Assembly (NCBI GenBank): GCA_002869015.1
Contig: PKTT01000002.1
Span: 32,299 to 96,298, forward strand
Reading direction: 5' to 3'
Length of the DNA: 64,000 nt
DNA from: Deltaproteobacteria bacterium
GTDB taxonomy: Bacteria > Desulfobacterota > Deferrisomatia > Deferrisomatales > BM512
The notes below the pieces were generated by a model, which saw only the letters and a program-made list of their open reading frames with translations, was not told where the DNA came from and searched no databases. Positions within the stretch are counted from its first letter, which is position 1; each line of letters opens with the position of its first letter. Below, piece by piece: positions 15,055 to 60,597 of this stretch. The position numbers were made by a program, and so were the translations under genes.

Positions 15055-16422
15055 TCAGGAAACCCCCAGCTTTTCAAGGCGGTACCTGAAGGAGCGGAAG
15101 GAGAGGCCAAGCAACTTTGCCGCCTCTGTTTTATTACCCCCTGTCTTTTTTAGCGCCTGCCTGATAAATGATAACTCTTTTCCGGTTAGGTATGCCTCTA
15201 TGTCCAACCCTTCATCTGGCAGTGACTCATCCTTTAGCCCGACCCCGTCTCGCTTCTCTGAGAGATACTCGGGAAAGCTATTCGGAGAGAGGTACTCCCC
15301 TGTTTCTAGGGCAACGGCCCTCTCGACGAGATTTTCCAGCTCCCTAACGTTTCCGGGGAAGTAGTATCCCTCAAGGAGTGTAAATACCTCAGGCTCTATC
15401 CCAGCCAGGTTTCTTCCAAAAGCCTTCTTGTACTTCTCGAAAAAGTGTTGTGTGAGTAGGGGAATGTCGTTTTTTCGTTCACGTAGCGAAGGGAGCTTAA
15501 TGGTTACAACGTTGAGGCGGTAGTATAGGTCCTCCCGGAAGCTGCCAGCCATTACCTCTTCCGCCAAGTCTCTATTTGTAGCGGAGACAATCCTTACATC
15601 GACATCGATCTCTTTATTTCCGCCTACACGTTTGATCTTCCCTGATTGGAGCACCCTAAGTAGCTTTGGCTGCAAAAGCAGGGGCAACTCTCCAATTTCG
15701 TCAAGAAACAATGTACCTCCGGCAGCCTCCTCAAATAGCCCCGGCTTGTCGGAAGTCGCACCGGTAAAGCTACCTTTTATGTGGCCGAAAAGCTCACTTT
15801 CAAGGAGGCCCTCTGGGATTGCTGAGCAGTTGAGGACGACAAAATTACCCTCTCTACCCGAGAGATCATGTATCCGCTTTGCTACAAGCTCCTTGCCGGT
15901 GCCGCTGTCGCCAAGGATGAGAACAGTTACACCTGTCGGCGCGATCCTCTCCGCTAGCTGCAACATCTCAATGGCGCTTTGGGAACGAGCTATAAAATCG
16001 CCCTTTCCTACGACCTCGGCAATCTTCCTCCTGAGCTCACGGTTCTCACGGGTAAGGGCTCCGCGCTCCAGCGCCTTTCTTATCGTTATCCTTATCTGAT
16101 CTACCTGAAAGGGTTTTGTTATGTAATCGTAAGCGCCAAGTTTCATCGCTTCGACGGCTGTCTCCGGTGTAGCAAAAGCGGTAATTACGATGACCTGGGT
16201 ATCGGGCTGTTTGGCCTTTACCCTTTCGACAATCTCCATCCCATTGCCGTCAGGCAGATTTAGATCGGTTATAAGGACGTCGTATATCTCCGAATCAATT
16301 TTCTCAAAGGCTGAGGCTACATTGCCGCAAGTGGTTGCCTCGTATCCCTCACCCTCCAGAAGAATTTCGAGAAATTCGCACATCGACGTTTCGTCATCTA
16401 CGACAAGTATTCGTTCAATCAT
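15055..16422 (-). CDS. pilR: Sigma-54-dependent response regulator (NtrC family), PilR by synteny
   Basis: REC domain (ILVVDDE...ITDLNLPDGNG). AAA+ domain with GDSGTGKE, ESELFGH and GSFTGA (GAFTGA variant). C-terminal Fis-type HTH (GGNKTEAAKLLGLSFRSFRYRL). ATG at 16422 overlaps the pilS stop (ATGATTGA); the 16476 extension is unlikely. Confidence 0.8.
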   Translation of the reverse strand: MIERILVVDDETSMCEFLEILLEGEGYEATTCGNVASAFEKIDSEIYDVLITDLNLPDGNGMEIVERVKAKQPDTQVIVITAFATPETAVEAMKLGAYDYITKPFQVDQIRITIRKALERGALTRENRELRRKIAEVVGKGDFIARSQSAIEMLQLAERIAPTGVTVLILGDSGTGKELVAKRIHDLSGREGNFVVLNCSAIPEGLLESELFGHIKGSFTGATSDKPGLFEEAAGGTLFLDEIGELPLLLQPKLLRVLQSGKIKRVGGNKEIDVDVRIVSATNRDLAEEVMAGSFREDLYYRLNVVTIKLPSLRERKNDIPLLTQHFFEKYKKAFGRNLAGIEPEVFTLLEGYYFPGNVRELENLVERAVALETGEYLSPNSFPEYLSEKRDGVGLKDESLPDEGLDIEAYLTGKELSFIRQALKKTGGNKTEAAKLLGLSFRSFRYRLEKLGVS

Positions 16423-18019
16423 CCCCGCACTCCAGGGTAATACGAAAGAGCGCCCCGCCTCCGGGGGCATCTTCAAGCGCTACGCTACCTCCGTGATTTT
16501 GAGCTATCCTATGGACAAGCGCAAGGCCCAACCCAGAGCCTGAAGAGGAGCCGCTTACAAATGGCTCGAAGATATTATTTTTAAGGCCTACTTCAACGCC
16601 AGGTCCATTGTCGGCAAAGGTGAACTCAAAATTAGAGCCGTCAAAGCCCCCATTGATTACTACCTCGACCCCTCCAGGTGATGCCGTTAGTGAATTTTTG
16701 AAGAGATTTATTAGCACTTGCTCCATCTTCTCACGGTCACACTTTATAACAGTCCCCTTGGGGAGATTGTTTACCATGGTAAGCACTCCACGCCCCTCAC
16801 CCTGTTCTAGAAAAAGGGCAACCTCATCTACCAAAAGCGAGAAGTCAAAGGAGGATTTATTGACACTTCCGGGTCTTGCATATAGCAAAAATCCGCTAAC
16901 CAGGTTGTTGAGCCTTTCGGTCTCACGCTTGACAATGTTTAAGAGCCGCAGCTCTTTTTCGCTGTCTGGGCTCATGGTGCCGCATATGAGCTCAACGGAG
17001 CCTGATAAACTTGCCAGTGGATTCCGAACTTCATGGGCGAGTCCCGCAGCGAGCCTACCAATAGCCGCTAGCCGATCCGCCTGTTTCAGCCTTTCCGAAA
17101 GCTTTCTAAGCTCCGTTAAATCCTGAAAGTTTATGATCTTGCCTGCGGCAGCGCCCTCATCATTGAGCAGCGGGACTACATTATACCCGAAAGTGACATC
17201 ACCCCTCTCTGTCTCCGCCTCCCCTCTGCCCTCCAGATTCAAGTCGAAAATGCCAGTTATAGCAACAGCATCTTCCGCTTTAACAGATGCGGTCTCAAGG
17301 AGCCTCTTACCGTTGTCATTGATAAACATTATATTGCCGGAGAGGTCAAAGGTTATAAGTCCACTGGCTAATGATTTTAAAATTCCTGTCTGGAGCCTTT
17401 CCAGATCGACAATTTCGCCCCTTGCCTCTTTTAGCGCAGAGGTCGTACGCCTTAGCTCCTCCGCCAGATATCCAGCCAACATCGCGGTGCTGTAGAATGC
17501 GGCAATATTCAAAGCAATTTTAAATGGCAGTGAAATTCCCGAGACAGTTCCGACCTCAAAGGGGGCAATGGGATTCACATAGCCATTAAATTGTAAGAGG
17601 ACGACTAACAGATAAGCAAAAGTGGCCCATGTAGCAGTTACGAAAGCGCCCTTCCTGAAGAAGAGCATTGCAGCGCCGATTATTGTGAAGAGGTAGATGA
17701 GTATCAGGGGGGAAGAGTAGCCACCAGTCAAAAAAATCAACACTGTGGCACAGAACACGTCCCAGACGGGCTGTGCTTTTAATAACCAATCACCGGCTCT
17801 TTTTCTTAGAACAAGTGTCGACGTAACCAAAGTTACGCCAAAGGAGAGGATCGCCATTACCACAAAACCGAAAATGGAGGGGTGAAGAGCGCCCCCTCCA
17901 AAATCACTACCAAGTGACGCGGCTACCGGGATGAGAGCTATAAGAACCGCTGCCCGCCCGAGGAGATATCCCCCTATCCTCTCAGCATTGCTCCCGCCAC
18001 TTTTTCGGCCTAGGGTCAT
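16415..18019 (-). CDS. pilS: Membrane sensor histidine kinase, PilS by synteny
   Basis: About six N-terminal TM helices and a PAS-like region. H-box AHEVRNPLASLSG. ATPase boxes NLFKNSLTA, DNGPGV and GSGLGLALV. Located between pilC and pilR. Confidence 0.75.
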   Translation of the reverse strand: MTLGRKSGGSNAERIGGYLLGRAAVLIALIPVAASLGSDFGGGALHPSIFGFVVMAILSFGVTLVTSTLVLRKRAGDWLLKAQPVWDVFCATVLIFLTGGYSSPLILIYLFTIIGAAMLFFRKGAFVTATWATFAYLLVVLLQFNGYVNPIAPFEVGTVSGISLPFKIALNIAAFYSTAMLAGYLAEELRRTTSALKEARGEIVDLERLQTGILKSLASGLITFDLSGNIMFINDNGKRLLETASVKAEDAVAITGIFDLNLEGRGEAETERGDVTFGYNVVPLLNDEGAAAGKIINFQDLTELRKLSERLKQADRLAAIGRLAAGLAHEVRNPLASLSGSVELICGTMSPDSEKELRLLNIVKRETERLNNLVSGFLLYARPGSVNKSSFDFSLLVDEVALFLEQGEGRGVLTMVNNLPKGTVIKCDREKMEQVLINLFKNSLTASPGGVEVVINGGFDGSNFEFTFADNGPGVEVGLKNNIFEPFVSGSSSGSGLGLALVHRIAQNHGGSVALEDAPGGGALFRITLECGDD

Positions 18020-49114: not shown

Positions 49115-50179
49115 TTAACTCTCCGAAATATCAATTAGAGCGGCGGCCGCTGTCCAGACACCTCCGCTTCGCTTTTCCATAATCAATTCCCCCCCCGAAG
49201 CTGCCGCGAGCGCCGCAGCCTCGCATACGGAGGGAGTACCCACCGCCTCCTTAACCCTCTCTGAGGGGTTGGGGGTTTTGTATCTGGCGAGCTCATCCGC
49301 CGTAAAGGTCGCATACTCGACATCCAGCTTCTCAGCTAATTTTATTATCGCCGCTTCATTACGCTTAGCGTCAACGCTAGCCACCATACCAACAGCAAGG
49401 GACGAAAGGCCTCCCTCTTTAAGGGCTAAGAGAACCCCCTCCTCAACCTTTTTTGGGTCCGCGTCCTTACGGCAGCCGACACCTAGCGCCAGCATCGGAG
49501 GCCTTATGATGAGGTCAGGTCCTCCTTTAATCTCCCTGTGGGAGAGGGCGACGACCACGTCGCCTGAAGAGAGCGCCTTATCCAAATCCGAGGTAACAAA
49601 GCAAAGGTGCGAATTAATGTCTCTGAAGAGGTCTTTTGGCAAAGCCGGGTCTATGTAGCCTGCCACACGCTCATCATTGGCCCAAGCGGAGTTGACCTTC
49701 ACAACCCCGGACCTATCCTCCAGCTTGAAGCCGCGAGAGAGCGCCCAGCTCTCGATCGCCGGTTTATTAAGCGCGTCAGTTGCCGTGGTTATGACGGGAA
49801 TAGCGCCCATGGCTTCATGAAGCTCGCGGGCAAGGTCGTTTGCGCCACCAACATGTCCGGAGAGAATCGGCACCGCGTAGAACCCTTCAGGGTCCATGAC
49901 AACCACCGCCGGGTCAGAGTATTTATCTTTGATTAGAGGGGCAATTGAACGAACGGCAATTCCAGCCGCCATCACCAATATTAACCCCCCCGCGAGGGGC
50001 CAAAGTTTTCGTATAAGGTCGGCTACCGGACCATCGAATGGCTCTACATCAAGCCCGGCGGCAAATTTCTTTGGCGCTAGCGCAACGGCACCCAGACTTT
50101 TTGAGGTAACCTCAGCCGACCTGGCGCCGTTTCGGGTGAGGGCGATAACATAAATCCCTCTTGGCCCCTGAGCAGCCAT
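49115..50179 (-). CDS. cbiG: Cobalt-precorrin-5A hydrolase
   Basis: CbiG N, middle and C regions (GIYVIALTRNGA...; VPILSGHVGGAN; LALGVGCRK). ATG at 50179 lies 5 nt after the cbiF stop; the longer ORF overlaps cbiF. Confidence 0.8.
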   Translation of the reverse strand: MAAQGPRGIYVIALTRNGARSAEVTSKSLGAVALAPKKFAAGLDVEPFDGPVADLIRKLWPLAGGLILVMAAGIAVRSIAPLIKDKYSDPAVVVMDPEGFYAVPILSGHVGGANDLARELHEAMGAIPVITTATDALNKPAIESWALSRGFKLEDRSGVVKVNSAWANDERVAGYIDPALPKDLFRDINSHLCFVTSDLDKALSSGDVVVALSHREIKGGPDLIIRPPMLALGVGCRKDADPKKVEEGVLLALKEGGLSSLAVGMVASVDAKRNEAAIIKLAEKLDVEYATFTADELARYKTPNPSERVKEAVGTPSVCEAAALAAASGGELIMEKRSGGVWTAAAALIDISES

Positions 50180-50183
50180 CCGG

Positions 50184-50963
50184 CTATCCGCTCCCCTTGC
50201 GATACCCATGGGTAAATGTTGCGGCATAGAGTTTGGAGGGCTCGAAGTCACTGCCGAGAATTCTGGGCCCAAGGGGGTCGCCGACAATGATCATTGACTG
50301 CTTTACGAAACCTGCCTCCTTCACCTTTGCGGCGATATCCTCAAGGGTCCCGGAAACCGAGGACTCGTCAGGCCACCCGGCACGGGATACCACCGCAGCA
50401 GGGGTCTTTGGTGAACGTCCACCCTCAAGGCAGCGCTCAACGACTTCTCCTATTCGGTCCACCGAAAGAAATACGCAGAGAGTCGCGCCTGAGGCGGCAA
50501 GTTTCTCCAGCGACTCACCCTCAGGAACAGGTGTCCTACCGGAGAGCCGGGTGAAGATAACTGTCTGGCTCACCCCCGGCAGCGTCAGCTGAGTTTTAAG
50601 AGCTGCCGCCGATGCAAAAGCGCTTGAAACCCCAGGAATGACCCTATAGGGTATTTGCGCTTCATCGAGTGGGACCATCTGCTCCTGTATAGCTCCGTAT
50701 AGGGAGGGGTCTCCTGTGTGGAGTCTTACCACCCGCTCTCCTCGGGATGCGTGCTCGATGCAGACCTTAGTCGTCTCCTCAAGGTTCATAGAAGCAGTAT
50801 TGTGTATTGGGATACCAGCCGGGGCATACTCAAGCAGCGCCGGGTTGACAAGGCTTCCCGCATAGAGGACAACATCTGCGGACTCGATGGCACGGAGCCC
50901 GGCTACTGTTATCAGGTCAGGCGCGCCTGGTCCCGCACCTACGAAAATGACTTCTCCCTTCAA
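50184..50963 (-). CDS. cbiF: Cobalt-precorrin-4 C11-methyltransferase
   Basis: VIFVGAGPGAPDLITVAGLRAIESADVVLYAGSLV and VVRLHTGDPSLYG motifs. Confidence 0.88.
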   Translation of the reverse strand: MKGEVIFVGAGPGAPDLITVAGLRAIESADVVLYAGSLVNPALLEYAPAGIPIHNTASMNLEETTKVCIEHASRGERVVRLHTGDPSLYGAIQEQMVPLDEAQIPYRVIPGVSSAFASAAALKTQLTLPGVSQTVIFTRLSGRTPVPEGESLEKLAASGATLCVFLSVDRIGEVVERCLEGGRSPKTPAAVVSRAGWPDESSVSGTLEDIAAKVKEAGFVKQSMIIVGDPLGPRILGSDFEPSKLYAATFTHGYRKGSG

Positions 50964-50965
50964 CT

Positions 50966-52183
50966 CTATTTACCTTTCGGTCGCGTGATGCGAAAGAGGG
51001 TTACCGGGTTTTCGGCGGATCGCATTGATCCTTCGCCAACCTTTTTGGAGCGGCTGAAGGAGAGGTCGACCCACTCAACCTCCATCTCGTTTTCCCGACA
51101 CCATTTAAGCGCTGCGGAGAAGGTCTCGGCTAAAACCGTGGAGACGACCACCACCCCGCCTTCCCGTAGCCGGGCGAAGGCTTTGTCTAGCACCTCTGCG
51201 AGGAACCCGCCCGACCCTCCGATGAAGACTCTGTCCGGGGCGGGCAGTCCATCCAGCGCCGAGGGAGCCAGGCCATCGGCTATATATAGCCCTGCGGTGC
51301 GGAATCTATTTCTATTCTCACGGATGTGCTCGACCGCTTCATGGTCGCGCTCAACCGCCCAGACCTGTATGGCCGGGTTTAAAAGCGCTGCCTCTATACC
51401 AACCGACCCAGAGCCTGCCCCTACATCCCAAAGCACCGCTTTACCCCTAGGAAGTGTAAGAAGACCCATAGCAACCGCTCTGACCGAGGCTTTTGTTATT
51501 CTTCCCCGTGGGTATGTGAAAAGCTCTTCGGGTATTCCCGGGCCAAGGGGGCGCGGGTCATTTTTTGTGTGGACGAGGATGACTACGTTCAAATCCGAAC
51601 CATCCCATTTGACGAAGTCATGGGTGAGCCCTCGCTCAATCCGCTCCTCGGGCTGTCCTAGGTCAGAGCAGACGACCATCTCAAGGTCCTCCCACCCTGT
51701 CTCAATAAGAAAACGGGCGATGCGCGAAGGAGAGTTTATTGAGTCGGTGAAGAGCCCTATCTTAGGTGCGCCGAGCACCTCGACCAGCTCCTGAAGGTCT
51801 CTACCATGGAGGCTGGCAATCCTCGCATCGGACCAGCTCAGACCCGCTCTCGCAAAGGCAACCTGCATCGACGATACGGCTGGGCGGATTATAACCTCGC
51901 CCCTGTCGAATTTTGTAAGAAGCAGGGCGGCTATTCCAAAGAAGGTTGGGTCACCGGAGGCCAGAAAGACAACCTTCAGCTTGTCGTTGCTGCTTAAGCG
52001 TTCCGCAATTTCCGAAATTTTCCCCTCGACCAGCTCCACCTTCGAGGCAAAACTATCAACAAGGAAACGGTGCCTGTCGGCTGTAACTACCATATCGGCG
52101 CGCTCGACAATCTTTCTGCTCTCGGCATCAAGCTTGTCCAAGCCTGGTTGTACACCGATAACCCAGATTCTGTAGTTACTCAT
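50966..52183 (-). CDS. cbiET: Bifunctional cobalt-precorrin-7 (C5)-methyltransferase / cobalt-precorrin-6B (C15)-methyltransferase (decarboxylating)
   Basis: N-terminal tetrapyrrole methylase half (IWVIGVQPG...) fused to a class I SAM methyltransferase half (VLWDVGAGSGSVGIEAA). Confidence 0.85.
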   Translation of the reverse strand: MSNYRIWVIGVQPGLDKLDAESRKIVERADMVVTADRHRFLVDSFASKVELVEGKISEIAERLSSNDKLKVVFLASGDPTFFGIAALLLTKFDRGEVIIRPAVSSMQVAFARAGLSWSDARIASLHGRDLQELVEVLGAPKIGLFTDSINSPSRIARFLIETGWEDLEMVVCSDLGQPEERIERGLTHDFVKWDGSDLNVVILVHTKNDPRPLGPGIPEELFTYPRGRITKASVRAVAMGLLTLPRGKAVLWDVGAGSGSVGIEAALLNPAIQVWAVERDHEAVEHIRENRNRFRTAGLYIADGLAPSALDGLPAPDRVFIGGSGGFLAEVLDKAFARLREGGVVVVSTVLAETFSAALKWCRENEMEVEWVDLSFSRSKKVGEGSMRSAENPVTLFRITRPKGK

Positions 52184-53313
52184 ACCGAAGCACCTCTTTC
52201 AAAAGAGCAGCGGGCAAGCTCCTCACCCTTATACCCAAAGAGCACAGTTTCGATAGCTATAGCCCCTTCGACACGCTCCTGAGCGCGCCTCGCAACCCTA
52301 CAAGTCAATAGCTCAAAGAGTCCTCTATCGCCTGTTTCTCGAAGGTTTTCATATATCTGCCGCGCAGTATTCGCTTTAAGGGCCTCTTTTGCCTCGGCAG
52401 GGGGGAAGCCCGCCTCCTCCATCAACTCCTTCAGAACCGTCAGGTCGAGTGAGGAGTCCTTCACATGGGTTCTGTAGTGACCCCCTGCGACTTTGCAAAA
52501 CTTTGCGAACTGCCCCACTATTACCGCGTCGAGGTCACGCTTGACAGTCTGATCCAACGAATAGCCAACGTGGTCACCCATCAGCACAGCTGCATTCTCG
52601 GCAAGCTCCGGGTAGAGCTTATGCCCGGCCAGTTCGCTGGTCCGCCCGAAGGCAAGGAGCATACGCTTTGCGCCGGCGGCCTTTGCGACATCTAAACAGG
52701 AGTCTATTGTAGCCTCCCATGCCGCCGCGGACATGGGTATTACGATGCCAGTTGTCCCAAGGATGGAGAGACCGCCGACAATGCCAAGCCTGTGATTCAA
52801 GGTTTTTTTAGCCCTCTCAGCACCCTCCGGAGCGCTGATAACAACCCTCACACCACTTATTCCATCTACTTTTTGGAGGCTGACCGCCTCACGCACGGAC
52901 TCCTCAATCATCTCAAGTGGTACAGGGTTTATCGCGGGACTTCCGACCTCAGCCGCAAGGCCCTTTCGCGTCACCCTGCCAACCCCCTCGCCGCCCTCAA
53001 TCTCCACCGTAAAGCCGCCACTGGATGATGCTTTTACTCCTGAGATAAGGGATACCGCGGCGCGAATCTCCATGCCGTTGGTTACATCAGGATCATCGCC
53101 GCCATCCTTTATCACACCACAGGAGGATACCTCTGTATCTTTAGTAAGGCCAACCAACTTGAAGCTACGAAAGGTTGCTGTTTCACGCTTCCAGGGCAGC
53201 TTTAGCGAAACCTCATCAACAGGTGCGCCAAGGAGCGCCATGGTTGCGCCTTTGGCGGCAGCGGCGGCGCAGGCTCCAGTTGAGTATCCGTGACGGAGTC
53301 TCTTCTTAGCCAT
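52180..53313 (-). CDS. cbiD: Cobalt-precorrin-5B (C1)-methyltransferase
   Basis: LRHGYSTGACAAAAAKGA N-terminus characteristic of CbiD. 377 aa. Confidence 0.88.
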   Translation of the reverse strand: MAKKRLRHGYSTGACAAAAAKGATMALLGAPVDEVSLKLPWKRETATFRSFKLVGLTKDTEVSSCGVIKDGGDDPDVTNGMEIRAAVSLISGVKASSSGGFTVEIEGGEGVGRVTRKGLAAEVGSPAINPVPLEMIEESVREAVSLQKVDGISGVRVVISAPEGAERAKKTLNHRLGIVGGLSILGTTGIVIPMSAAAWEATIDSCLDVAKAAGAKRMLLAFGRTSELAGHKLYPELAENAAVLMGDHVGYSLDQTVKRDLDAVIVGQFAKFCKVAGGHYRTHVKDSSLDLTVLKELMEEAGFPPAEAKEALKANTARQIYENLRETGDRGLFELLTCRVARRAQERVEGAIAIETVLFGYKGEELARCSFERGASV

Positions 53314-53324
53314 CGCTTATGAGC

Positions 53325-53978
53325 CTATACCTCGCCCGCAGCGGCTTTCATCAGGGCATTTACGCACGCAGCAGCAACATTTGAGCCCCCCTTGTTGCCC
53401 TTGACGGATATCCACTCAAGGTCGCTGCGCTCCATGAGCGCATCCTTGGACTCAGCAGCCCCGACAAAGCCAACCACCGTGCCAACTATCACCGCCGGTT
53501 TGGCTTTACCCTCATCTACAAGCTCCAAAAGGCGAAAGAGGGCGGTCGGCGCGTTACCGAAGACATATATGGCCCCGGTATGCATACGCGCGGCTTTCTC
53601 GACGGCCGCTATGGAGCGGGTAACCCCGCGCTCTCTGGCATCTTCGACGACCCCTGAGTCGCTTATGTAGCAGAAGGTCTCCGAGCCGAACTTTGCCGCT
53701 CTGACCTTGGATACGCCAGAACGCGCCATCTCAACATCGGTAACAATCGGCGCGCCGCCACTTAAGGCGGAAACAGCAGCGTCAAAGGCCCCGCCGCTCC
53801 ACTTTACCAAGGGCAAAAACGAGGGATCTCCCGTGGCATGGATAACGCGGCCAACCAGCGCTTTCTCCCTGGGAGAAAGGTGCGAGAGGTCCACAAGTGT
53901 ATCTATTATCTCAAAGCTTCTCTTCTCTATCTCATCGGGGCGTATATCGTACCCCCATCTTCCTTTAAGCTCACTCAA
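53325..53978 (-). CDS. cbiC: Cobalt-precorrin-8 methylmutase
   Basis: IEKRSFEIID...VIHATGDP...IYVFGNAPTAL motifs of CbiC/CobH. Confidence 0.88.
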   Translation of the reverse strand: MSELKGRWGYDIRPDEIEKRSFEIIDTLVDLSHLSPREKALVGRVIHATGDPSFLPLVKWSGGAFDAAVSALSGGAPIVTDVEMARSGVSKVRAAKFGSETFCYISDSGVVEDARERGVTRSIAAVEKAARMHTGAIYVFGNAPTALFRLLELVDEGKAKPAVIVGTVVGFVGAAESKDALMERSDLEWISVKGNKGGSNVAAACVNALMKAAAGEV

Positions 53979-54352
53979 CTCAAGCTCTCCTTTATCCTCT
54001 CAAGCGCAATCTCTGCCAACTTTGGATGTGCGCCAATGTGCGAGCTCATTATAAGCTCGAAATCCGGATGTTTTTGTCGCGCCTTCTCAAGCTCCTCCGG
54101 TATATCCTCCAGTACGTGGGCCCCGGGGAAGAGGAAGAAGGGCATGATGGATACCTTGCGGGCACCACCTTCGTAAAGCTCCTCCAGCGCCGCGCCTAGG
54201 GAGGGCTCTGCCAACTGCAAGAACGCCGGCATTACCCTAACACCGCCCATGGCAGCAGAGAGCATCCCCGCCACCTCGCCAAGAGGTAAATTAGCCGCGC
54301 TAACGCGGCTGCCATGGCCCAATAGTAGGACCGCGTCCAGCTTGCCTTCCAT
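53975..54352 (-). CDS. cbiX: Sirohydrochlorin cobaltochelatase, short form (CbiX-S-like)
   Basis: About 125 aa from ATG 54352. VLLLGHGSR and FLFPGAHV motifs of a single CbiX half-domain. ATGA overlap with cbiC. Confidence 0.7.
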   Translation of the reverse strand: MEGKLDAVLLLGHGSRVSAANLPLGEVAGMLSAAMGGVRVMPAFLQLAEPSLGAALEELYEGGARKVSIMPFFLFPGAHVLEDIPEELEKARQKHPDFELIMSSHIGAHPKLAEIALERIKESLS

Positions 54353-54469
54353 AATAAACTCTCCTGGAGAAAATATCAGGTTTTTCCATTTGAAGTGACG
54401 AGCGGTGCGATGCTTGCACAAGGGGGCACTCATGTCAAGAAATGGGGGGTATGTATTTGCCCTCTTTTA

Positions 54470-55852
54470 TCAACCAGCCAAGGGTACGGTAAAGGTGAAT
54501 GTCGCGCCCTTACCCGGAGGCGATTCCACCCAGATATATCCGCCAAGCCGCTCAACTATATCACGGCAGATCGAGAGACCAAGACCCGTACCTAAAGACT
54601 GGTGTTTTTGAGGGTCCCTAAGCTGCTTGAAACGGTCGAATATCTCCCTTAACTTCGATTGATCTATACCGGGTCCCTCATCCGTTACGGAGATTACGGC
54701 AAACCCACCGCGCCGCCTCGCCCTTATAAGTACTTTTGAGCCGAAGGGCGAAAACTTGGAGGCGTTCCCAAGGAGGTTCGTCATCACCTGCATCAACCGG
54801 TCGAAGTCCGCAAGGGCCGGCGGGAGGCTGCGCTCCACATTCACGACAAGTTTCACGCTGTTTTTATCAAAAAGTGCCCGTGTGGCCTGGGTCGCCTTCT
54901 CTACAACTTCCTCAAGGGGTACAGGCACCAACTCTACATCAAGTTTACCAGCTTCTATCTTGGAGTAGTCGAGAAGGTCATTGATCATTCTCGTTAGGCG
55001 GTCCGCCTCGTCATGGATGATCTCCGCAAACTTCCGCCGCTTATCCCTGTCATCGACATCGTAGCGGAGAAAAATCTCCGAAAAAGATTTTATCGAAGTG
55101 AGGGGGGTTCTAAGCTCGTGGCTCACATTTGAGAGGAATTCACTCTTTACCCTATCCAGCTCAAGAAGCCTTTTATTGGCTGCCTCAAGCTCCGCGGTGC
55201 GCTGCCTTACACGTTCTTCCATAACTACGCTGGCGTTATGCACCTGACTATAAAGCCTCGCGTTGACCACTGAGAGGGCCATCTGATTTGCGAGCGCCTG
55301 GAGGAGGGAGACGAATTGCTCACCGAACTTCTCAGGGCCGCGCGTTGAATAAAACATCAAAACCCCAATCGGCTTGCCCTCATGGATCATCGGCACATGC
55401 ACCATGGCTTTTACCGGGAGGGCCATGGAGAGCATTTCAAAGTATGGGGAATGGGGCATTTTGGTAGTGTCGCGCACGACCACCGGCTTGGCATCGAGAA
55501 AAGCCCTGCCGAACATCGTATAACGGGTCGGCACCAGCTTGGTGGCTTCAGCATAGTCGGTATCGAGCCCTATGGCTGCCCTCACCTCAAGCTGGCCCCT
55601 TTCATTTAAAAGCCGGACTCCCATGTGCTGGAAGCCGAAGTTCCTGCGCATGATATCGAGTATTGAGTCAAGCACCTCCGTTAAATCGAAGGATGCGGAG
55701 AGCGTGGATGAGGCTTCATGGAGTACAGAGAGGTCCCTAAGACGCCTTTCAAGCTCTGTGCGCCCCGCCGCAAGCCTTCCAAGGAGCACCCCCGTGAAGA
55801 GAGCGCCCATCGCAAGGCCTATAAAGAGAGCGGCGAGATATATTGAGGCCAT
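54470..55852 (-). CDS. Membrane-anchored GAF-domain sensor histidine kinase
   Basis: One N-terminal TM helix and a GAF region. H-box SHELRTPLTSIKS, N box NLLGNASKF, G1 DEGPGI and G2 GTGLGLSI. Confidence 0.85.
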   Translation of the reverse strand: MASIYLAALFIGLAMGALFTGVLLGRLAAGRTELERRLRDLSVLHEASSTLSASFDLTEVLDSILDIMRRNFGFQHMGVRLLNERGQLEVRAAIGLDTDYAEATKLVPTRYTMFGRAFLDAKPVVVRDTTKMPHSPYFEMLSMALPVKAMVHVPMIHEGKPIGVLMFYSTRGPEKFGEQFVSLLQALANQMALSVVNARLYSQVHNASVVMEERVRQRTAELEAANKRLLELDRVKSEFLSNVSHELRTPLTSIKSFSEIFLRYDVDDRDKRRKFAEIIHDEADRLTRMINDLLDYSKIEAGKLDVELVPVPLEEVVEKATQATRALFDKNSVKLVVNVERSLPPALADFDRLMQVMTNLLGNASKFSPFGSKVLIRARRRGGFAVISVTDEGPGIDQSKLREIFDRFKQLRDPQKHQSLGTGLGLSICRDIVERLGGYIWVESPPGKGATFTFTVPLAG

Positions 55853-55878
55853 AGACTCTCCTCAGCGAACTTTACGCA

Positions 55879-58011
55879 TTAATAACGGGAGTTCTGCCAG
55901 CGCAAGATCAACATCCTGTCGCAGAACGCCTTTGCCTGTGCAAGGGTCCTCACCCCCCTCGCGGCTAGGAGCGGGATGAGTTTTACTAATATCTCAGCGG
56001 TTGCGCGCGCATCCCCCAGGGAGGTATGGCGGCCCTCAATGGTCACCCCCAGCCTGTCGGAGATTGCGTCAAGGCTGTGCCCCTGCAAGTCTCCATGAAC
56101 CCCAAAGGAGAGGAAGAGGGTATCAATAACCGGGTTATCCATAGACACCAGATTATTTTCACGCGCCGCCAATTCGAGAAACTTCATATCGAAGGCGGCA
56201 TTGTGGGCTACAAGCACCGCTTCGCCAACGTACTCTTTGAAGTCCTCAAAAGCTTCACCCATCTTGGGTGCCCCGGCTACCATCTCATCTGTTACGCCGT
56301 GAAATTTTATAGACTCGGGGGGGATTACCATGCCTGGGTCGACGAGGGTATGAAAAACCCCTGAGGAAAGCACTTTGCCCCGCCTGACCCTTACACCGCT
56401 AAGCGAGACGACTCTGTCGCCCTTGGCTGGGCTGAGCCCCGTGGTCTCCGTATCGAAGACGACAAACTCAAGCTCTGAGAGGTCGCGGGAGAGCAGGTCA
56501 CCCGTCTCAAATCCAGGGCGTGCCTGAAATAGGTCGAAATCATAGAACTCGGGCTGGTCGTCCACGATCCTCGCGCCGCCATCCTCCTCTGGCAACAGTG
56601 AGGCCTTCACCATGCCCAAGCGTACCTCGAAGTCATCCCCATGGGAGCGGGTCCAAATCTCGCCCCTGTTACGCCTGACTGCTTCAGTTAAGGAAATCGG
56701 CTCCTCTCCCTCCACCTCTACTGAAAGGTTTTTAAGTTCATCTGGAGAGATATCCTTCGTTCCATTCAGGCTAAAGGTCGTAACAACCATATCTCCCTCC
56801 GCTTCAATAGATGCAAGCAGCGGGCTCCAGCCGTTGGAGTGTGAATCCAGCCAACCTATAACGGTGGACATTGCCGCTACCCAACCAAAGGGTTCAGCAG
56901 CTACCGGCGGCAGGTGTTCGGGCGGATTTGAAAGCTCTGCAAAGACCCCTTTTCTCGCGGCCAGGGCTTCGACAAGTATGGATTGGGCGTCAGCTGGTTG
57001 TCCGGGCCAATAGGCGCTGGGCATTGAGTTAGCTACCTCTTCGCCCTCACCAAGCATTTTCAGGCAGGCGGTAGCCTCTCCATGGAGGGCGGCAGCAAAA
57101 GCAGTGCGTTTCTCTTCGGGAATGTCTTTACGGGTTGCCAGAATCTCCGCGAGAGAGTGCATAGACGATAAAGGCGAACGCAGCATGGAGGGTAGTTTTC
57201 GCAGATGCAGATCAACCCGTTTATCCCGTTCAGCCTCTTCGGTCAAGTCCCTAAAGGCAAGCAGGAACCCGGCTAGCCCATAATTATGCTCGGGCATTAC
57301 CGCCATAACGCCTTTTAGAAGGCGCCCACCTGCGAGGGGAAAGATCACCGGCTCGACCATATCGCGCCTACCCTCATCCCATCCTAGGCGCAGCTGCTTA
57401 AGATGGTACTCAACCCGCTGCGCTGGAAGCACCTGAGTTAATTTTCGTCCAAGCGCAGGGTTGCTCCCGGTGCATAGAGCAGCCCGAGCGCGCGGGTTCA
57501 TCAAGAGGACTTCACCATGCTCATTCAGGACTACTAGCCCCTCTACCATTGTTCTCAAAACCGAGGCAAGGCGGCTCTTCTCCCCCTGTAATGAGACGGT
57601 GACCTCTCTGACCCTATCCTCAAGTTCGCTGTATGCTCCTTCAAGCGCTTCAGCCATAGCGTTGAAATCCGCCGCAAGCGATTCAAGCTCATCCCCGGTG
57701 GAGACGTCTATACGGTGAGAGAGATTGATCCTTGATACTATCTCGGCGCCATGTCTTATTTTGAGGAGCGGCGAGAGCAGCTTGTCAGCAAATCTCCAAG
57801 CAAGGGCTATGCAGACAACGGTAAGTATGCTGCCGAGGACGTAGACTCTTAGCATGAAGTGGGGAGTGGACCCCACAGATTCGGGCAAGGAGGTGAGGAG
57901 CGCCATAACGGCCAGCGCGAAGGGGCAAACCGCCAATAACACTATCGCCGAGACGAGGCGAACGCGAATTCGTTGGGTAAAGGGTATCTGGCGGTCCTGG
58001 GCAGGTGTCAT
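55879..58011 (-). CDS. TM-HAMP-PAS-degenerate histidine-kinase-like protein fused to a C-terminal DEDDh 3'-5' exonuclease (DnaQ/epsilon-like) domain
   Basis: Two TM helices. HAMP (GDELESLAADFNAMAEAL). PAS-like region (LASVLRTMVEGLVVLNEHGEVLLMNPRA). DHp-like SMLRSPLSSMHSLAEIL lacks the H-E dipeptide. CA-like region lacks G1/G2 boxes. Intact exonuclease motifs: FVVFDTETTG (ExoI), VAHNAAFDMKFL (ExoII) and HTSLGDA (ExoIII, H-x4-D). Confidence 0.75.
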   Translation of the reverse strand: MTPAQDRQIPFTQRIRVRLVSAIVLLAVCPFALAVMALLTSLPESVGSTPHFMLRVYVLGSILTVVCIALAWRFADKLLSPLLKIRHGAEIVSRINLSHRIDVSTGDELESLAADFNAMAEALEGAYSELEDRVREVTVSLQGEKSRLASVLRTMVEGLVVLNEHGEVLLMNPRARAALCTGSNPALGRKLTQVLPAQRVEYHLKQLRLGWDEGRRDMVEPVIFPLAGGRLLKGVMAVMPEHNYGLAGFLLAFRDLTEEAERDKRVDLHLRKLPSMLRSPLSSMHSLAEILATRKDIPEEKRTAFAAALHGEATACLKMLGEGEEVANSMPSAYWPGQPADAQSILVEALAARKGVFAELSNPPEHLPPVAAEPFGWVAAMSTVIGWLDSHSNGWSPLLASIEAEGDMVVTTFSLNGTKDISPDELKNLSVEVEGEEPISLTEAVRRNRGEIWTRSHGDDFEVRLGMVKASLLPEEDGGARIVDDQPEFYDFDLFQARPGFETGDLLSRDLSELEFVVFDTETTGLSPAKGDRVVSLSGVRVRRGKVLSSGVFHTLVDPGMVIPPESIKFHGVTDEMVAGAPKMGEAFEDFKEYVGEAVLVAHNAAFDMKFLELAARENNLVSMDNPVIDTLFLSFGVHGDLQGHSLDAISDRLGVTIEGRHTSLGDARATAEILVKLIPLLAARGVRTLAQAKAFCDRMLILRWQNSRY

Positions 58012-58373
58012 TTTTCCAACAAGGCGTTAATCTCCGCCACCAACTCACCGGCATGAAAGGGTTTAGTTATGTAGGCGTCCGCTCCAACCTCAAGACCTTT
58101 TTTGCGCTCAAGGGGCTGGCCCTTAGCCGTAAGCATAATCACTTTGGGGGGTGCATCCTGGGATTTTAGTAAACGGCAGACCTCATAGCCGTCGCGGCGG
58201 GGCATCGCAACGTCGAGCAGCACTATGCCCGGCTCAAAGCTTTTTGCTGCCTCCAAAGCCTCTTCACCATCTCCTGCGGTCTTTACCTCGAACCCCTCCT
58301 CCTCAAGGATGAACTCTAAAGACAAGAGAATATTTGGTTCATCGTCAACGACGAGGACCTTCTTCATGGACAT
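58008..58373 (-). CDS. Stand-alone receiver-domain response regulator (CheY-like)
   Basis: KKVLVVDDE...VLLDVAMPRRDG...MLTAKG...KPF motifs. ATG at 58373 is preceded by GGGAGG. The stop overlaps the start of the exonuclease-sensor gene (ATGA). Confidence 0.85.
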   Translation of the reverse strand: MSMKKVLVVDDEPNILLSLEFILEEEGFEVKTAGDGEEALEAAKSFEPGIVLLDVAMPRRDGYEVCRLLKSQDAPPKVIMLTAKGQPLERKKGLEVGADAYITKPFHAGELVAEINALLEK

Positions 58374-58538
58374 CCGAGACCTCCCGAATCGCCTTGCGAG
58401 CACGGCTGAAATGAAAATATTTCAACTGTAAAACCTTATTTTATTTTGGCTTATCAGTCAATCCGCTTTATCCATTCTAACCTCTGCGGTGCGGCAATCG
58501 CGTTGACAGGCGCACTGGTTGCCCGCTAGGATCAGCCA

Positions 58539-59126
58539 ATGTCCAACAACCCTCATAGACGATTCAAAAGTTCGCCGAAAAGGCGATACCTCCCCCTAGC
58601 CATAGCCGTCTTACTCGGTCTGGGCATTGGTTTATGGACCTCGCACCTCCTGGAAGTTCGCGCCAAGGAGCAGGGTGAGGAGCTATCCCAAACCGTGATC
58701 TCCCTTGTCGGTCAGGCGGCGAAGTTAAAAGAGACAAGGGAGCTTGATGAAGCGCGAAACCTTCTCAAAGCAGCGCTAAAGATGATGGAGCCGGCACCGG
58801 AGCTCCACCAGTCAGAGCCCTATATTAATGTCCTGACAAGCCTCGCGGCCCTTGAGTTGTCAGAAAGTTCGCCGGAGGAAGAGGGGGTGGCGCAAGCTAT
58901 ACAGTACCTCGAAGATGCCTGGAAGTACTCTTCCGGCGCAAAAGATAAAATTCGCGCAACCATAGCCAAAGAGAGAGCTTTTGCCGAGCTGCTCAGCGCC
59001 AATATGGATGATGCGATTCTCTGGCTCAACCGAGCTGCTGACCTTGACCCCGATGAGGAGGAGGTGGTTAAGCAGGTTGAGGTTGTCGAGCGCTATAAAA
59101 GCTGGAGAGAGAGGATCAAGAGGTAG
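58539..59126 (+). CDS. Hypothetical membrane-anchored TPR-like protein
   Basis: Basic N-terminus, one TM helix (YLPLAIAVLLGLGIGLW), then helical repeats (EARNLLKAALKMM; AIQYLEDAWKY; DAILWLNRAADLDP). No family recognised. Confidence 0.45.
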   Translation: MSNNPHRRFKSSPKRRYLPLAIAVLLGLGIGLWTSHLLEVRAKEQGEELSQTVISLVGQAAKLKETRELDEARNLLKAALKMMEPAPELHQSEPYINVLTSLAALELSESSPEEEGVAQAIQYLEDAWKYSSGAKDKIRATIAKERAFAELLSANMDDAILWLNRAADLDPDEEEVVKQVEVVERYKSWRERIKR

Positions 59127-60393
59127 GGGGCGCTCCCCTTTTGGATGGCCGACGACGACGGCGTCCACTTCTTTTGCGAGGCTTTTTTTTCTGGTCTAGA
59201 GGAGTATTCCGCTCTTCTAAATATGACCCCCAATACCCAGCCGCACTGCTTTGACTATCGTCAAAAGCGGCCCAAAGAGAATAAAACTCCCAAGCCTCCG
59301 CAAAATCTTTACGTCTGGCGAACTTGCCCTTTGCCCTGTAGTGTTTGCCCTTAGCGAACCGGTAGCAGGAGAGAATTATCTCCTTTGCCTGATGGCGGAT
59401 ATGCGCTGATATCTGGTAACGGGCGCATAGAGGGGTTACGACTTCCGTAATAGCAGGGGCAGCTTCATCCAGTCTAGCCTCGCCGGTGAGGGGGTAATGG
59501 TTAACCACTGTTGGCAGGGCAAGCGCCGCTATATATCGGTACTCCTGTTGGGAGCGGCCTTTTTTGCTCTCATCGTCCAGGGGTTTTAGCAGGTGATATA
59601 TACCATCCGAAACCTCAACTTCGGGGTATAGATGTTCGAAAAGACCCAGGCGGGAGGCCTCGCGGAAAACCTCCCCGACTATACCCAGATGCTGCATCTG
59701 CCGCACCTCATCCCTCAGCCTGGCAGGAGATGACTCCGAGATAAGGTGCGCGTTTGCCTTTATACCCGATGCAGTTTTGCGCTCAATTGTGAACCCCAGC
59801 CTTGCAGCAAATTCAATAGCTCTTAACATTCTTACGGGGTCTTCAGAGAACCTCTCATCAGGCTCACCGATCAACCGTATTTTTTTGCTCTCAAGGTCGG
59901 AGAGTCCCCCGGCATAGTCGATAATGGAAAAATCATCGAAATTGTAAAGCAGCGCGTTGATTGTGAAGTCGCGTCGCATTGCGTCATCTTCAGGAGAGCC
60001 GAATACCGCCCCGGTTTTATCTCTGTCCTCTGAGGTAAGGTGGCTATCATCCTCCATCTTCTCCAGACCCCTGAAAGTTGTCACCTCAACAATCTTGTCA
60101 GGTGCACCTTTTCGGCGGAAGAACACGTGGGCAAGCCTGAAACGTCTGCCAATGAGCCTACAGTTTCTAAAGAGAGCTTTGACCTCGCTTGGGCGGGCAT
60201 TGGTGCCGATGTCAAAATCTTTAGGTTCTCGCCCAAGAAGTATGTCTCTAACCGCGCCTCCTACTATATAAGCGAGATAACCCGAGCGGCGTAGCCGCCT
60301 CAACACCCAGAGCGCATCGTCATCGACCAGCGAGCGGCTAAGAGTATGCTCAGGCCGGGCTAAAGTAATGGGAAGTTTCTTTTTTGGCGTCAT
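59116..60393 (-). CDS. pcnB: Poly(A) polymerase I / CCA-adding enzyme family nucleotidyltransferase
   Basis: AYIVGGAVRDILLGREPKDFDIGT catalytic motif, RRDFTINAL, and a basic C-terminal tail (KKKPRKRSGRRRRRPSKR). ATG at 60393 is supported by an extended -10 element (TGTTACAAT) at 60445-60453 on the minus strand. Confidence 0.8.
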   Translation of the reverse strand: MTPKKKLPITLARPEHTLSRSLVDDDALWVLRRLRRSGYLAYIVGGAVRDILLGREPKDFDIGTNARPSEVKALFRNCRLIGRRFRLAHVFFRRKGAPDKIVEVTTFRGLEKMEDDSHLTSEDRDKTGAVFGSPEDDAMRRDFTINALLYNFDDFSIIDYAGGLSDLESKKIRLIGEPDERFSEDPVRMLRAIEFAARLGFTIERKTASGIKANAHLISESSPARLRDEVRQMQHLGIVGEVFREASRLGLFEHLYPEVEVSDGIYHLLKPLDDESKKGRSQQEYRYIAALALPTVVNHYPLTGEARLDEAAPAITEVVTPLCARYQISAHIRHQAKEIILSCYRFAKGKHYRAKGKFARRKDFAEAWEFYSLWAAFDDSQSSAAGYWGSYLEERNTPLDQKKKPRKRSGRRRRRPSKRGAPPTS

Positions 60394-60444
60394 GGCTCTT
60401 TCTGTAATGCATTTAACAGCTGAAATGGTCTTTTGCTGGCGCGC

Positions 60445-60453
60445 ATTGTAACA
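60445..60453 (-). promoter_or_regulatory. Extended -10 promoter element for pcnB
   Basis: Minus strand TGtTACAAT, about 50 nt upstream of ATG 60393. No good -35 element. Confidence 0.35.
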
Positions 60454-60569
60454 AAATCGACACCTTGGAGCGAGGATTGTTGCCGATGCCACAAATTTAA
60501 ACCATTGGCTCAATGCATCCGTCAAAGATGTGGTTATGTTTAAGGGGGCAATTTCTTCGTCACTTAAGT

Positions 60570-60597
60570 TTGAAAACTTCCACACAAGTTGTAAAAT
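60570..60597 (+). promoter_or_regulatory. Sigma-70 promoter for the DsbC-like gene cluster
   Basis: TTGAAA (60570-60575), a 16-nt spacer ending in TG, then TAAAAT (60592-60597). GGAGGG at 60621-60626 lies 6 nt before the TTG start at 60633. Confidence 0.5.

Follow-up and report, generated by a model that had tools for sequence, protein, structure and literature searches.

A receiver, a histidine kinase and a membrane-bound pseudokinase-exonuclease form a conserved bacterial module with a possible enzymatic output

To our knowledge, the outputs of characterised two-component systems are almost all transcription factors, second-messenger enzymes, or motor or protease adaptors. Two described systems come closest to the locus treated here. 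In Caulobacter, the pseudokinase DivL is described as sensing whether the single-domain response regulator DivK is phosphorylated (PMC4211667; bioRxiv 10.1101/812529). In Pseudomonas, the strongest target of MxtR/ErdR is a stand-alone exonuclease/DUF294 gene pair, PP_0353/PP_0354 (PA3232/PA3233), and PP_0353 is required for normal growth on pyruvate by a mechanism stated as unknown (PMC9927547; bioRxiv 10.64898/2026.09.07.749794). In this study, a cassette of three genes was analysed in a 64,000-nucleotide stretch of a Deltaproteobacteria bacterium (assembly GCA_002869015.1, contig PKTT01000002.1, positions 32,299 to 96,298), hereafter called the window. The genes encode a regulator made of a receiver domain only (REC), an exonuclease fused to a membrane sensor, and a GAF histidine kinase. 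They are a real, widely conserved bacterial signalling module without a literature of its own, and we see about an even chance that they form a two-component pathway with an enzyme, the pseudokinase-exonuclease protein, as its output in place of a transcription factor. A literature search on the sensor-fused exonuclease family found no publication; mentions of "DUF294" in the preprint of Price et al. are in fact prefix matches to DUF2946, and probably most other literature matches are of the same kind.

Conservation and domain content of the module

The three open reading frames (ORFs) that a preliminary description of this DNA had reported were all recovered on the minus strand at the same positions (Table 1). 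They lie head to tail in the order REC gene, gene of the 710-amino-acid exonuclease protein and GAF kinase gene. The ATGA in which the REC stop codon was said to overlap the start of the exonuclease-protein gene is present at 58008-58011, and the 26-nucleotide gap described ahead of the kinase is confirmed by the positions of the exonuclease-protein stop codon (TAA, 55879-55881) and the kinase ATG (55852). This gap contains a ribosome-binding site, GAGGAG, and another one, GGGAGG, precedes the REC ATG at 58373. An alternative REC start is offered by an in-frame GTG upstream, at 58403, which would yield a protein of 131 amino acids.

Co-occurrence of the three genes was assessed in 165 family loci, taken from among the matches listed by two collection scans; the main set comprised 92 related loci with at least 3 kb on both flanks (full-flank loci). 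In this set the REC gene is directly upstream of the exonuclease gene in 82 loci (89%), a kinase gene is adjacent in 71 (77%), and both hold in 70 (76%). Among 80 genome loci the corresponding counts are 70, 58 and 57; the order is kinase-REC-exonuclease in 41 and REC-exonuclease-kinase in 11, and in five the kinase gene lies downstream on the opposite strand. An independent metagenome set gave an upstream REC gene in 63 of the 69 loci with enough upstream sequence. The REC stop codon overlaps the exonuclease start codon in the window and at many other loci. Scores of the adjacent REC orthologues are 95-135 bits, whereas unrelated REC domains at these loci reach 21-62 bits. The REC-exonuclease arrangement is far beyond chance, and the fact that gene order varies yet the set is kept argues for selection on the set. 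The check that had been proposed for the cassette, co-occurrence elsewhere, thus came out positive: the three genes co-occur across phyla and the cassette is therefore real.

Full-length relatives with 45-61% identity occur, among the matches listed, in Geobacter, Desulfuromonadales and Deferrisomatales, where databases name them merely "exonuclease domain-containing protein" or "DNA polymerase III epsilon". At about 30% identity the matches listed extend to Alpha-, Beta- and Gammaproteobacteria, Desulfobacterales and Nitrospirota. The module spans Desulfuromonadota and all of these latter groups. With more than 500 confirmed matches in each scan, in several phyla and next to genes for the uptake and activation of acetate, pyruvate and propionate, it is not rare.

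The REC protein matches Pfam Response_reg (E 2e-31) and has no further domain. Its phospho-acceptor is D54, accompanied by D10, D11, T82 and K104 and by the switch residue Y101. Across 72 orthologues the Asp and Lys residues of the pocket are at least 94% conserved and T82 at least 70%, and C66 and K92-G93 are signatures of the family. The most conserved surface is the output face alpha4-beta5-alpha5 (K92, G93, G97, A98, Y101, K104, P105 and F106). The window kinase consists of one N-terminal transmembrane (TM) helix, GAF (residues 56-195), HisKA (236-302, Pfam E 8e-23) and HATPase_c (349-459, E 5e-31). Its H-box reads SHELRTPL, with His245 as the phospho-acceptor, and the H, N, G1, F and G2 boxes are conserved throughout 50 partner kinases. 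The preliminary description had called the kinase competent, and both kinase and receiver devoid of a DNA-binding output. Both statements hold, as every catalytic residue is retained in the two proteins and their Pfam/NCBIfam domain content includes no DNA-binding output.

For the 710-residue protein Pfam reports HAMP, PAS and RNase_T, and an AlphaFold2 model was obtained with a mean predicted local distance difference test score (pLDDT) of 75. The intact HAMP/PAS input had been passed over before. In alignment A1 many relatives of about 910 amino acids have a periplasmic domain of about 200 residues between the TM helices, which the window protein lacks. The "degenerate DHp" noted earlier is real, and its degeneracy extends farther, over the complete DHp+CA core: residues 262-505 were aligned by hhalign with the core of the partner kinases (99.7%, E 4.7e-26, 204 columns; match spanning residues ~264-470), and in that alignment the N-box Asn, the G1 and G2 boxes and the acceptor His are all lost. 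The H-box equivalent is PSMLRSPL, with Ser275 at the site of the phospho-acceptor His, and the corresponding column is never His in 85 of 85 family members. At this column (57187-57189 in the window, minus strand) Glu, Asp or Gln is present in about three quarters of the family, and Ser in the window. The replacement of the lost His is acidic or phosphomimetic-like and not a random substitution. A Foldseek search with the N-terminal ~470 residues returned full-length sensor kinases, namely WalK (model 9a5d, E 5e-20), VicK, YF1 and ThkA-TrrA.

The pseudokinase core is followed by the linker motif PEFYDFDLF, the best-conserved element apart from the exonuclease domain. Residues F489, Y490, F492, D493, L494 and F495 are invariant in A1, and the YDF core is at least 90% conserved in an 85-sequence family alignment, unlike the pseudokinase core. 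The surrounding segment 475-501 is predicted to be disordered (pLDDT below 50). The DEDDh exonuclease domain retains its catalytic residues D520 and E522 (Exo I DxE), D608 (Exo II D), and H662 and D667 (Exo III Hx4D), all invariant in A1, as are F696, C697, D698, W705, Q706 and R709 of the C-terminal tail. By Foldseek the C terminus resembles the PolC, epsilon, DnaQ and DinG exonucleases with root-mean-square deviations of 1.5-2.4 Å (PolC exonuclease domain, 1.5 Å), and the best solved relative is the PolC-type exonuclease of T. maritima (2p1j, E 3e-26). Sequence identity is 44-56% to REC-linked plasmid copies, compared with 34% to PolC and 28% to epsilon, and the domain forms a subgroup of its own.

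This resemblance, the database name "DNA polymerase III subunit epsilon" and generic PADLOC matches to DEDDh domains raise the question whether the protein is a replication or repair exonuclease, or a part of phage defence, unrelated to the two-component genes beside it. We consider this very improbable. HAMP, PAS and a pseudokinase core mark the protein as a membrane sensor, and the neighbours of its relatives are acs, actP and DUF294 genes, not replication, repair or defence genes. Against the epsilon equivalog models it scores 102-104 bits, under the cut-offs of 196-223. Identity with the epsilon subunit was rejected because the latter is a small soluble exonuclease with a polymerase-binding tail, as opposed to 710 residues with two TM helices, HAMP, PAS and a pseudokinase core; the phage-defence reading was rejected since the PADLOC matches are at the level of the DEDDh domain only. 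The cassette protein is thus no Pol III epsilon subunit, and no observation speaks for a role in defence.

A proposed route from receiver to nuclease

At most related loci the module stands in a metabolic context that had been passed over in the preliminary description, with DUF294, symporter and acetyl-CoA synthetase (Acs) genes as neighbours. The usual partner kinase has about 920 amino acids, of which the first ~550 comprise 10-12 TM segments homologous to sodium:solute symporters (hhalign 98.7%). Judged by a length of at least 850 amino acids and by homology, 86 of 105 adjacent partner kinases possess this symporter-like N terminus; those of Desulfuromonadaceae and Geobacter measure 1053-1057 amino acids and have a GAF domain ahead of the kinase core. 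A DUF294 nucleotidyltransferase, often with CBS/cNMP domains, is encoded at 68 of the 92 full-flank loci (74%), a separate SSF transporter (acetate-type symporter) at 43 and Acs at 24. The gene that directly follows the exonuclease gene encodes DUF294 in 48 of the 165 family loci. On RefSeq plasmids of Paracoccus yeei and Marivivens the order is acs, DUF485/DUF4212, acetate/solute symporter (actP), DUF294, in some cases a hypothetical protein, REC and long exonuclease; their REC is 42% identical to that of the window and their exonuclease domains fall in the 44-56% range given above.

The window differs from this pattern. Its kinase lacks the symporter-like membrane domain of SSS-type sensor kinases and has a single TM helix in its place, yet it shares 55% identity with residues 618-1050 of the 1053-residue kinase of locus L002; that it is a truncated form of the transporter-like sensor kinase had not been noticed before. 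No DUF294, SSF or Acs homologue was found within the 64-kb window, and locus L081 has none either. The short form and the same gene order recur at L004 (92% identity), L081 (61%) and L001 (58%). The order in this clade is a dsbC-like gene, pcnB, a divergent 195-residue TM/TPR-like ORF, REC, exonuclease and the 460-residue kinase, followed by cbi genes at L004 and L081; the L001 contig stops just past the kinase. The window cassette is a reduced form, in which the kinase has lost the transporter-like sensor, the exonuclease protein is without the periplasmic domain and DUF294 is absent from the 64 kb.

Co-occurrence, a competent kinase and receiver without DNA-binding output, and a dead kinase core joined to an invariant DEDDh site make direct post-translational control of the nuclease the most economical reading, and such control by the receiver is plausible. 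We infer a route in which the membrane-anchored GAF kinase would autophosphorylate on His245 and hand the phosphate to Asp54 of the 121-residue receiver. Indirect signs of this transfer are the joint presence of both genes at 76% of the full-flank loci and a covariation of REC with the DHp of the real kinase that exceeds the CA background. Having no output domain, the receiver would act by binding the co-translated partner encoded directly behind it, presumably a dimeric TM-HAMP-PAS membrane sensor with a dead kinase core and an intact DEDDh 3'-5' exonuclease. The pseudokinase would combine the signal from its own HAMP/PAS domains with the phosphorylation state of the receiver, and the exonuclease would be switched on or off, or its access to substrate altered. 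Since the nuclease sits by DUF294 and by genes for acetate/monocarboxylate uptake and activation in most genomes, its likely substrate there is a 3' nucleotide end that the DUF294 transferase produces or lengthens, with a purpose tied to short-chain carboxylate metabolism, in which the nuclease probably works against a nucleotidyltransferase. The complete scheme is put forward more tentatively and is rather doubtful as a whole: the receiver, once phosphorylated by a transporter-like or a GAF sensor kinase, would directly switch the membrane-tethered exonuclease through the dead kinase core or the conserved peptide next to it, the nuclease would oppose DUF294, and carboxylate availability would thereby be converted into trimming or extension of 3' ends of RNA, DNA or a nucleotidylated target.

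The preliminary description had proposed that the receiver docks on the degenerate DHp. A single receiver docking on the real as well as the dead DHp should cause these two domains to drift together within a genome. In 92 non-redundant loci the pseudo-DHp indeed resembles the DHp of its cognate kinase more than that of shuffled partners, with z 4.4 at positions H+3..H+20 and z 4.4 for the whole DHp, as compared with z 1.6 for the CA control. The signal persists after de-duplication to 60% identity, with z 2.1-2.7 for DHp and 0.85 for the control. The resemblance is driven by H-1, H+11, H+16, H+18 and H+20. Mutual information between REC and the pseudo-DHp was calculated from 139 pairs and was not enriched, the fraction of pairs with Z>3 (0.0057) being that of the background. 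In the positive control, REC versus the real kinase, this fraction was 0.0100 at the DHp and 0.0043 at the CA domain. Because the positive control worked, the 139-pair run counts mildly against DHp docking. An earlier run with 59 REC/exonuclease pairs, which was underpowered, gave no enrichment at the pseudo-DHp either. Docking of REC on the dead DHp thus has weak and mixed support, the within-genome resemblance of the DHps speaking for it and the missing REC/pseudo-DHp covariation against it.

Several further observations weigh against the scheme outlined above. About 10% of the full-length loci have no adjacent REC gene, and alphaproteobacterial operons have no adjacent kinase gene. The DHp-DHp resemblance is small (~7% in BLOSUM units) and partly at the level of clades, and it would fit a contact between kinase and pseudokinase equally well. 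In the wide family the pseudokinase core is poorly conserved and the linker motif is conserved, and the docking site may therefore lie elsewhere. In addition, the clade of the window has no DUF294, so that a pairing of nucleotidyltransferase and exonuclease cannot be assumed there.

A kinase-pseudokinase contact leads to the question whether the exonuclease protein might precede the kinase in the pathway. The dead DHp would then pair with or scaffold the real kinase in a heterodimer or a larger complex at the membrane, the HAMP/PAS input would tune its kinase or phosphatase activity on REC, the exonuclease would be under its own sensors only, and REC would have another target. The resemblance of DHp to DHp, which a helix-bundle contact would also give, the lack of REC covariation with the pseudo-DHp and the membrane anchors of both proteins are in line with this arrangement. 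On the other hand, the exonuclease gene is tied more tightly to REC (89%) than to the kinase (77%), alphaproteobacterial operons retain REC and exonuclease without any adjacent kinase, and the stop/start overlap couples the exonuclease gene to REC and not to the kinase. Overall we regard such an upstream role as unlikely.

The phosphorylated receiver could also regulate the nuclease through the invariant PEFYDFDLF peptide, or through a surface of the exonuclease or PAS domain, instead of the dead DHp. CheY~P binds short peptides of FliM and CheZ, and the conserved motif in a segment predicted to be disordered, together with the strong conservation of the REC alpha4-beta5-alpha5 face, would suit a similar contact, an analogy that is drawn from general knowledge. 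The linker motif gives no covariation signal because it is invariant. The top covariation pairs between REC and the exonuclease protein join the alpha4 residues 90/91 of REC to exonuclease and PAS columns; the matches are dominated by a single REC column, and these pairs may be clade markers. A peptide or surface contact of this kind is judged rather improbable.

Single-domain receivers often act as phosphate sinks or connectors. REC might accordingly serve as a sink, or connect the pathway to another target such as DUF294, the symporter or a distant effector, with the operon reflecting co-expression in a carboxylate-responsive regulon and the pseudokinase core serving as an inert dimerisation scaffold. 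The absence of REC/pseudo-DHp covariation and the weak conservation of the pseudokinase core agree with this possibility. Yet REC is immediately upstream of the exonuclease gene, often overlapping it, in very distant phyla and in both gene orders, and it remains with the exonuclease in the clade of the window, where DUF294 and symporter are absent; a sink or connector role therefore has a low probability in our judgement.

If post-translational control of the nuclease by the receiver is true, an environmental signal would act directly on nucleic-acid ends, and the module would represent a previously unrecognised class of two-component output. It would also bear on the role of the exonuclease/DUF294 pair under MxtR/ErdR, which recent Pseudomonas papers list as unknown. 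The fused, self-contained form is a biochemically tractable entry, with three or four proteins and clear catalytic and phospho-site mutants.

Surroundings of the cassette in the window and at related loci

A promoter-like block of TTGACT, 17 nucleotides and TA(A/T)(G/C)GT lies about 70 nucleotides upstream of REC and is kept in the window, L004, L081 and L001; its -10 part, reading TATCGT or TATGGT, is also kept at L085. A consensus scan missed the block because the -10 element of the window fits just three of six consensus positions. From this conservation it is a candidate promoter of the cassette (Table 1). Homologues of the divergently transcribed TPR-like ORF occupy the same site upstream of REC at L004, L001, L081 and L085, and at L085 the ORF stays with REC and exonuclease although the remaining flanking genes differ. 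It has a promoter-like site of its own at 58503-58532 and could belong to the module as a fourth component confined to the clade.

No convincing terminator was detected by scanning between the three cassette genes or past the kinase. The kinase stop at 54470 is separated by 36 nucleotides from the longest cbiX ORF and by 117 nucleotides from an internal Met that is the likelier cbiX start. As no terminator was found between kinase and cbiX, the cassette transcript may run on into the cobalamin operon. The junction of kinase and cobalamin operon recurs at L081 and L004. An Rfam scan of the full window matched no RNA family, cobalamin riboswitch included, and therefore no RNA element accounts for the locus.

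The next same-strand gene upstream in the window, L004, L081 and L001 is pcnB, encoding poly(A) polymerase; these four loci constitute the clade without the usual DUF294 nucleotidyltransferase. A pcnB-like gene is also located about 4 kb upstream at two Sulfuritalea loci, L026 and L027. Given the absence of DUF294 and the conserved upstream pcnB, the opposing activity in the clade of the window might be polyadenylation. The pcnB neighbourhood could also be plain inherited synteny. The only other kinase/receiver pair in the window is a separate one of two mutually adjacent genes, a 534-residue kinase directly followed by a 473-residue receiver-containing protein.

At other loci, additional ORFs accompany the module. 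A hypothetical protein of 165-193 amino acids without Pfam match lies between DUF294 and REC/exonuclease on several alphaproteobacterial plasmids (L086 6845-7426, L087 6802-7299, L089 6810-7316, L090 6830-7360); the L087 copy, the one sequence inspected, apparently has two TM helices. At the Geobacter loci L083 (10829-11020) and L084 (10510-10701) a 63-residue ORF without Pfam match is found between the exonuclease gene and the 1057-residue kinase, and an AP-endonuclease-family gene flanked by two DUF294 genes follows downstream. On the Paracoccus alcaliphilus plasmid p402633 (L087 7664-9567) the long exonuclease gene is split by the IS5-family element ISPpa3 and apparently frameshifted; RefSeq annotates two small exonuclease fragments there, and intact relatives have 646-650 amino acids. 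This locus had been a candidate for REC beside a short stand-alone exonuclease, which was rejected as a disrupted copy of the long form; a genuine pair of that kind would have excluded the pseudokinase as docking site. ORFs of 725-931 amino acids run antisense to the exonuclease gene at L019, L026, L027, L051, L059, L073, L077 and L079. Their clustering only reflects the conserved gene on the other strand, and they are in all likelihood artefacts of composition.

Table 1. Coordinates of the cassette, of the parts of the exonuclease protein and of neighbouring features (window positions)
Feature	Position	Strand	Details
REC-only response regulator	58008..58373	-	121 aa from ATG 58373
Membrane sensor, pseudokinase core and DEDDh exonuclease (whole gene)	55879..58011	-	710 aa
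Histidine kinase	54470..55852	-	460 aa
Two TM helices	57787..57969	-	Residues ~15-75; ~10-residue periplasmic loop; from hydropathy and model helices 15-41, 50-94
HAMP	57640..57786	-	Residues 76-124; Pfam E 2.9e-9
PAS	57232..57573	-	Residues ~147-260; Pfam PAS_4 and PAS under gathering cut-off; five-strand PAS-like fold 158-255 in model
Pseudo-DHp helical hairpin	57022..57228	-	Residues ~262-330; model helices 257-293, 299-328
Pseudo-CA (degenerate ATP-binding)	56590..57021	-	Residues ~331-474; alpha/beta fold (338-469), pLDDT 82-92
Linker motif PEFYDFDLF	56527..56553	-	Residues 487-495; between pseudokinase core and exonuclease domain
DEDDh 3'-5' exonuclease domain	55942..56484	-	Residues ~510-690 (model fold 515-684); Pfam RNase_T E 7.5e-33
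C-terminal helix/tail AKAFCDRxLxLRWQxSRF	55882..55941	-	Residues ~690-710; model helix 690-707
Candidate sigma-70-type promoter of the cassette	58433..58461	-	-35 TTGACT (58461-58456), 17-nt spacer, -10 TAAGGT (58438-58433)
TPR-like single-TM protein, divergently transcribed	58539..59126	+	195 aa; Pfam TPR matches weak
pcnB	59116..60585	-	
Cobalamin biosynthesis operon	49115..54433	-	cbiX, cbiC, cbiD, cbiET-like, methylase, cbiG
Other kinase/receiver pair	15055..18019	-	

Comparison with known systems

By analogy, the closest mechanistic precedent would be DivL-DivK. Both cases involve a PAS protein with a DHp+CA core lacking the acceptor His that is encoded or acts with a REC-only regulator. 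DivL has Tyr at the His site, whereas the exonuclease protein has Ser and most of its relatives Glu, Gln or Asp. DivL controls the kinase CckA; in contrast, the exonuclease protein has a DEDDh output of its own and its CA has lost the ATP-binding boxes. The likeness to DivL is drawn from sequence architecture, and binding of REC to the pseudo-DHp is putative here.

The partner kinases of most relatives are built like CbrA, with an SSS-like N terminus, a sensor domain, HisKA/HATPase and no C-terminal receiver (PMC7918813). CbrA and RpuS work with DNA-binding regulators and possess STAC and PAS domains, whereas the regulator of the cassette is REC-only and Pfam gives GAF and no STAC-type domain for the Desulfuromonadota partner kinases. 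The exonuclease domain has the fold and the same five catalytic residues as the PolC/DnaQ-type exonucleases (2p1j, Pol III epsilon, DinG N terminus). Those are soluble replication or repair modules, whereas the cassette exonuclease sits at the C terminus of a membrane signalling protein as its output.

In biological terms, the exonuclease/DUF294 genes controlled by MxtR/ErdR (CrbS/CrbR) come nearest to the cassette. That system combines a symporter-like kinase, the RNase T-like exonuclease PP_0353, the cNMP-CBS-DUF294 protein PP_0354 and actP/acs in the use of acetate, propionate and pyruvate. Most relatives of the cassette have these very neighbours, and the likeness is drawn from gene context. 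The link in Pseudomonas is transcriptional, through a hybrid kinase and a DNA-binding regulator, and the exonuclease is small and soluble. The cassette, by contrast, has a REC-only regulator and an exonuclease that forms one protein with a membrane sensor and a pseudokinase. In the window, the symporter-like domain has been lost from the kinase and DUF294 is absent from the surroundings. A REC-only regulator together with a sensor-fused exonuclease suggests that the wiring of the module, compared with that of MxtR/ErdR, is post-translational.

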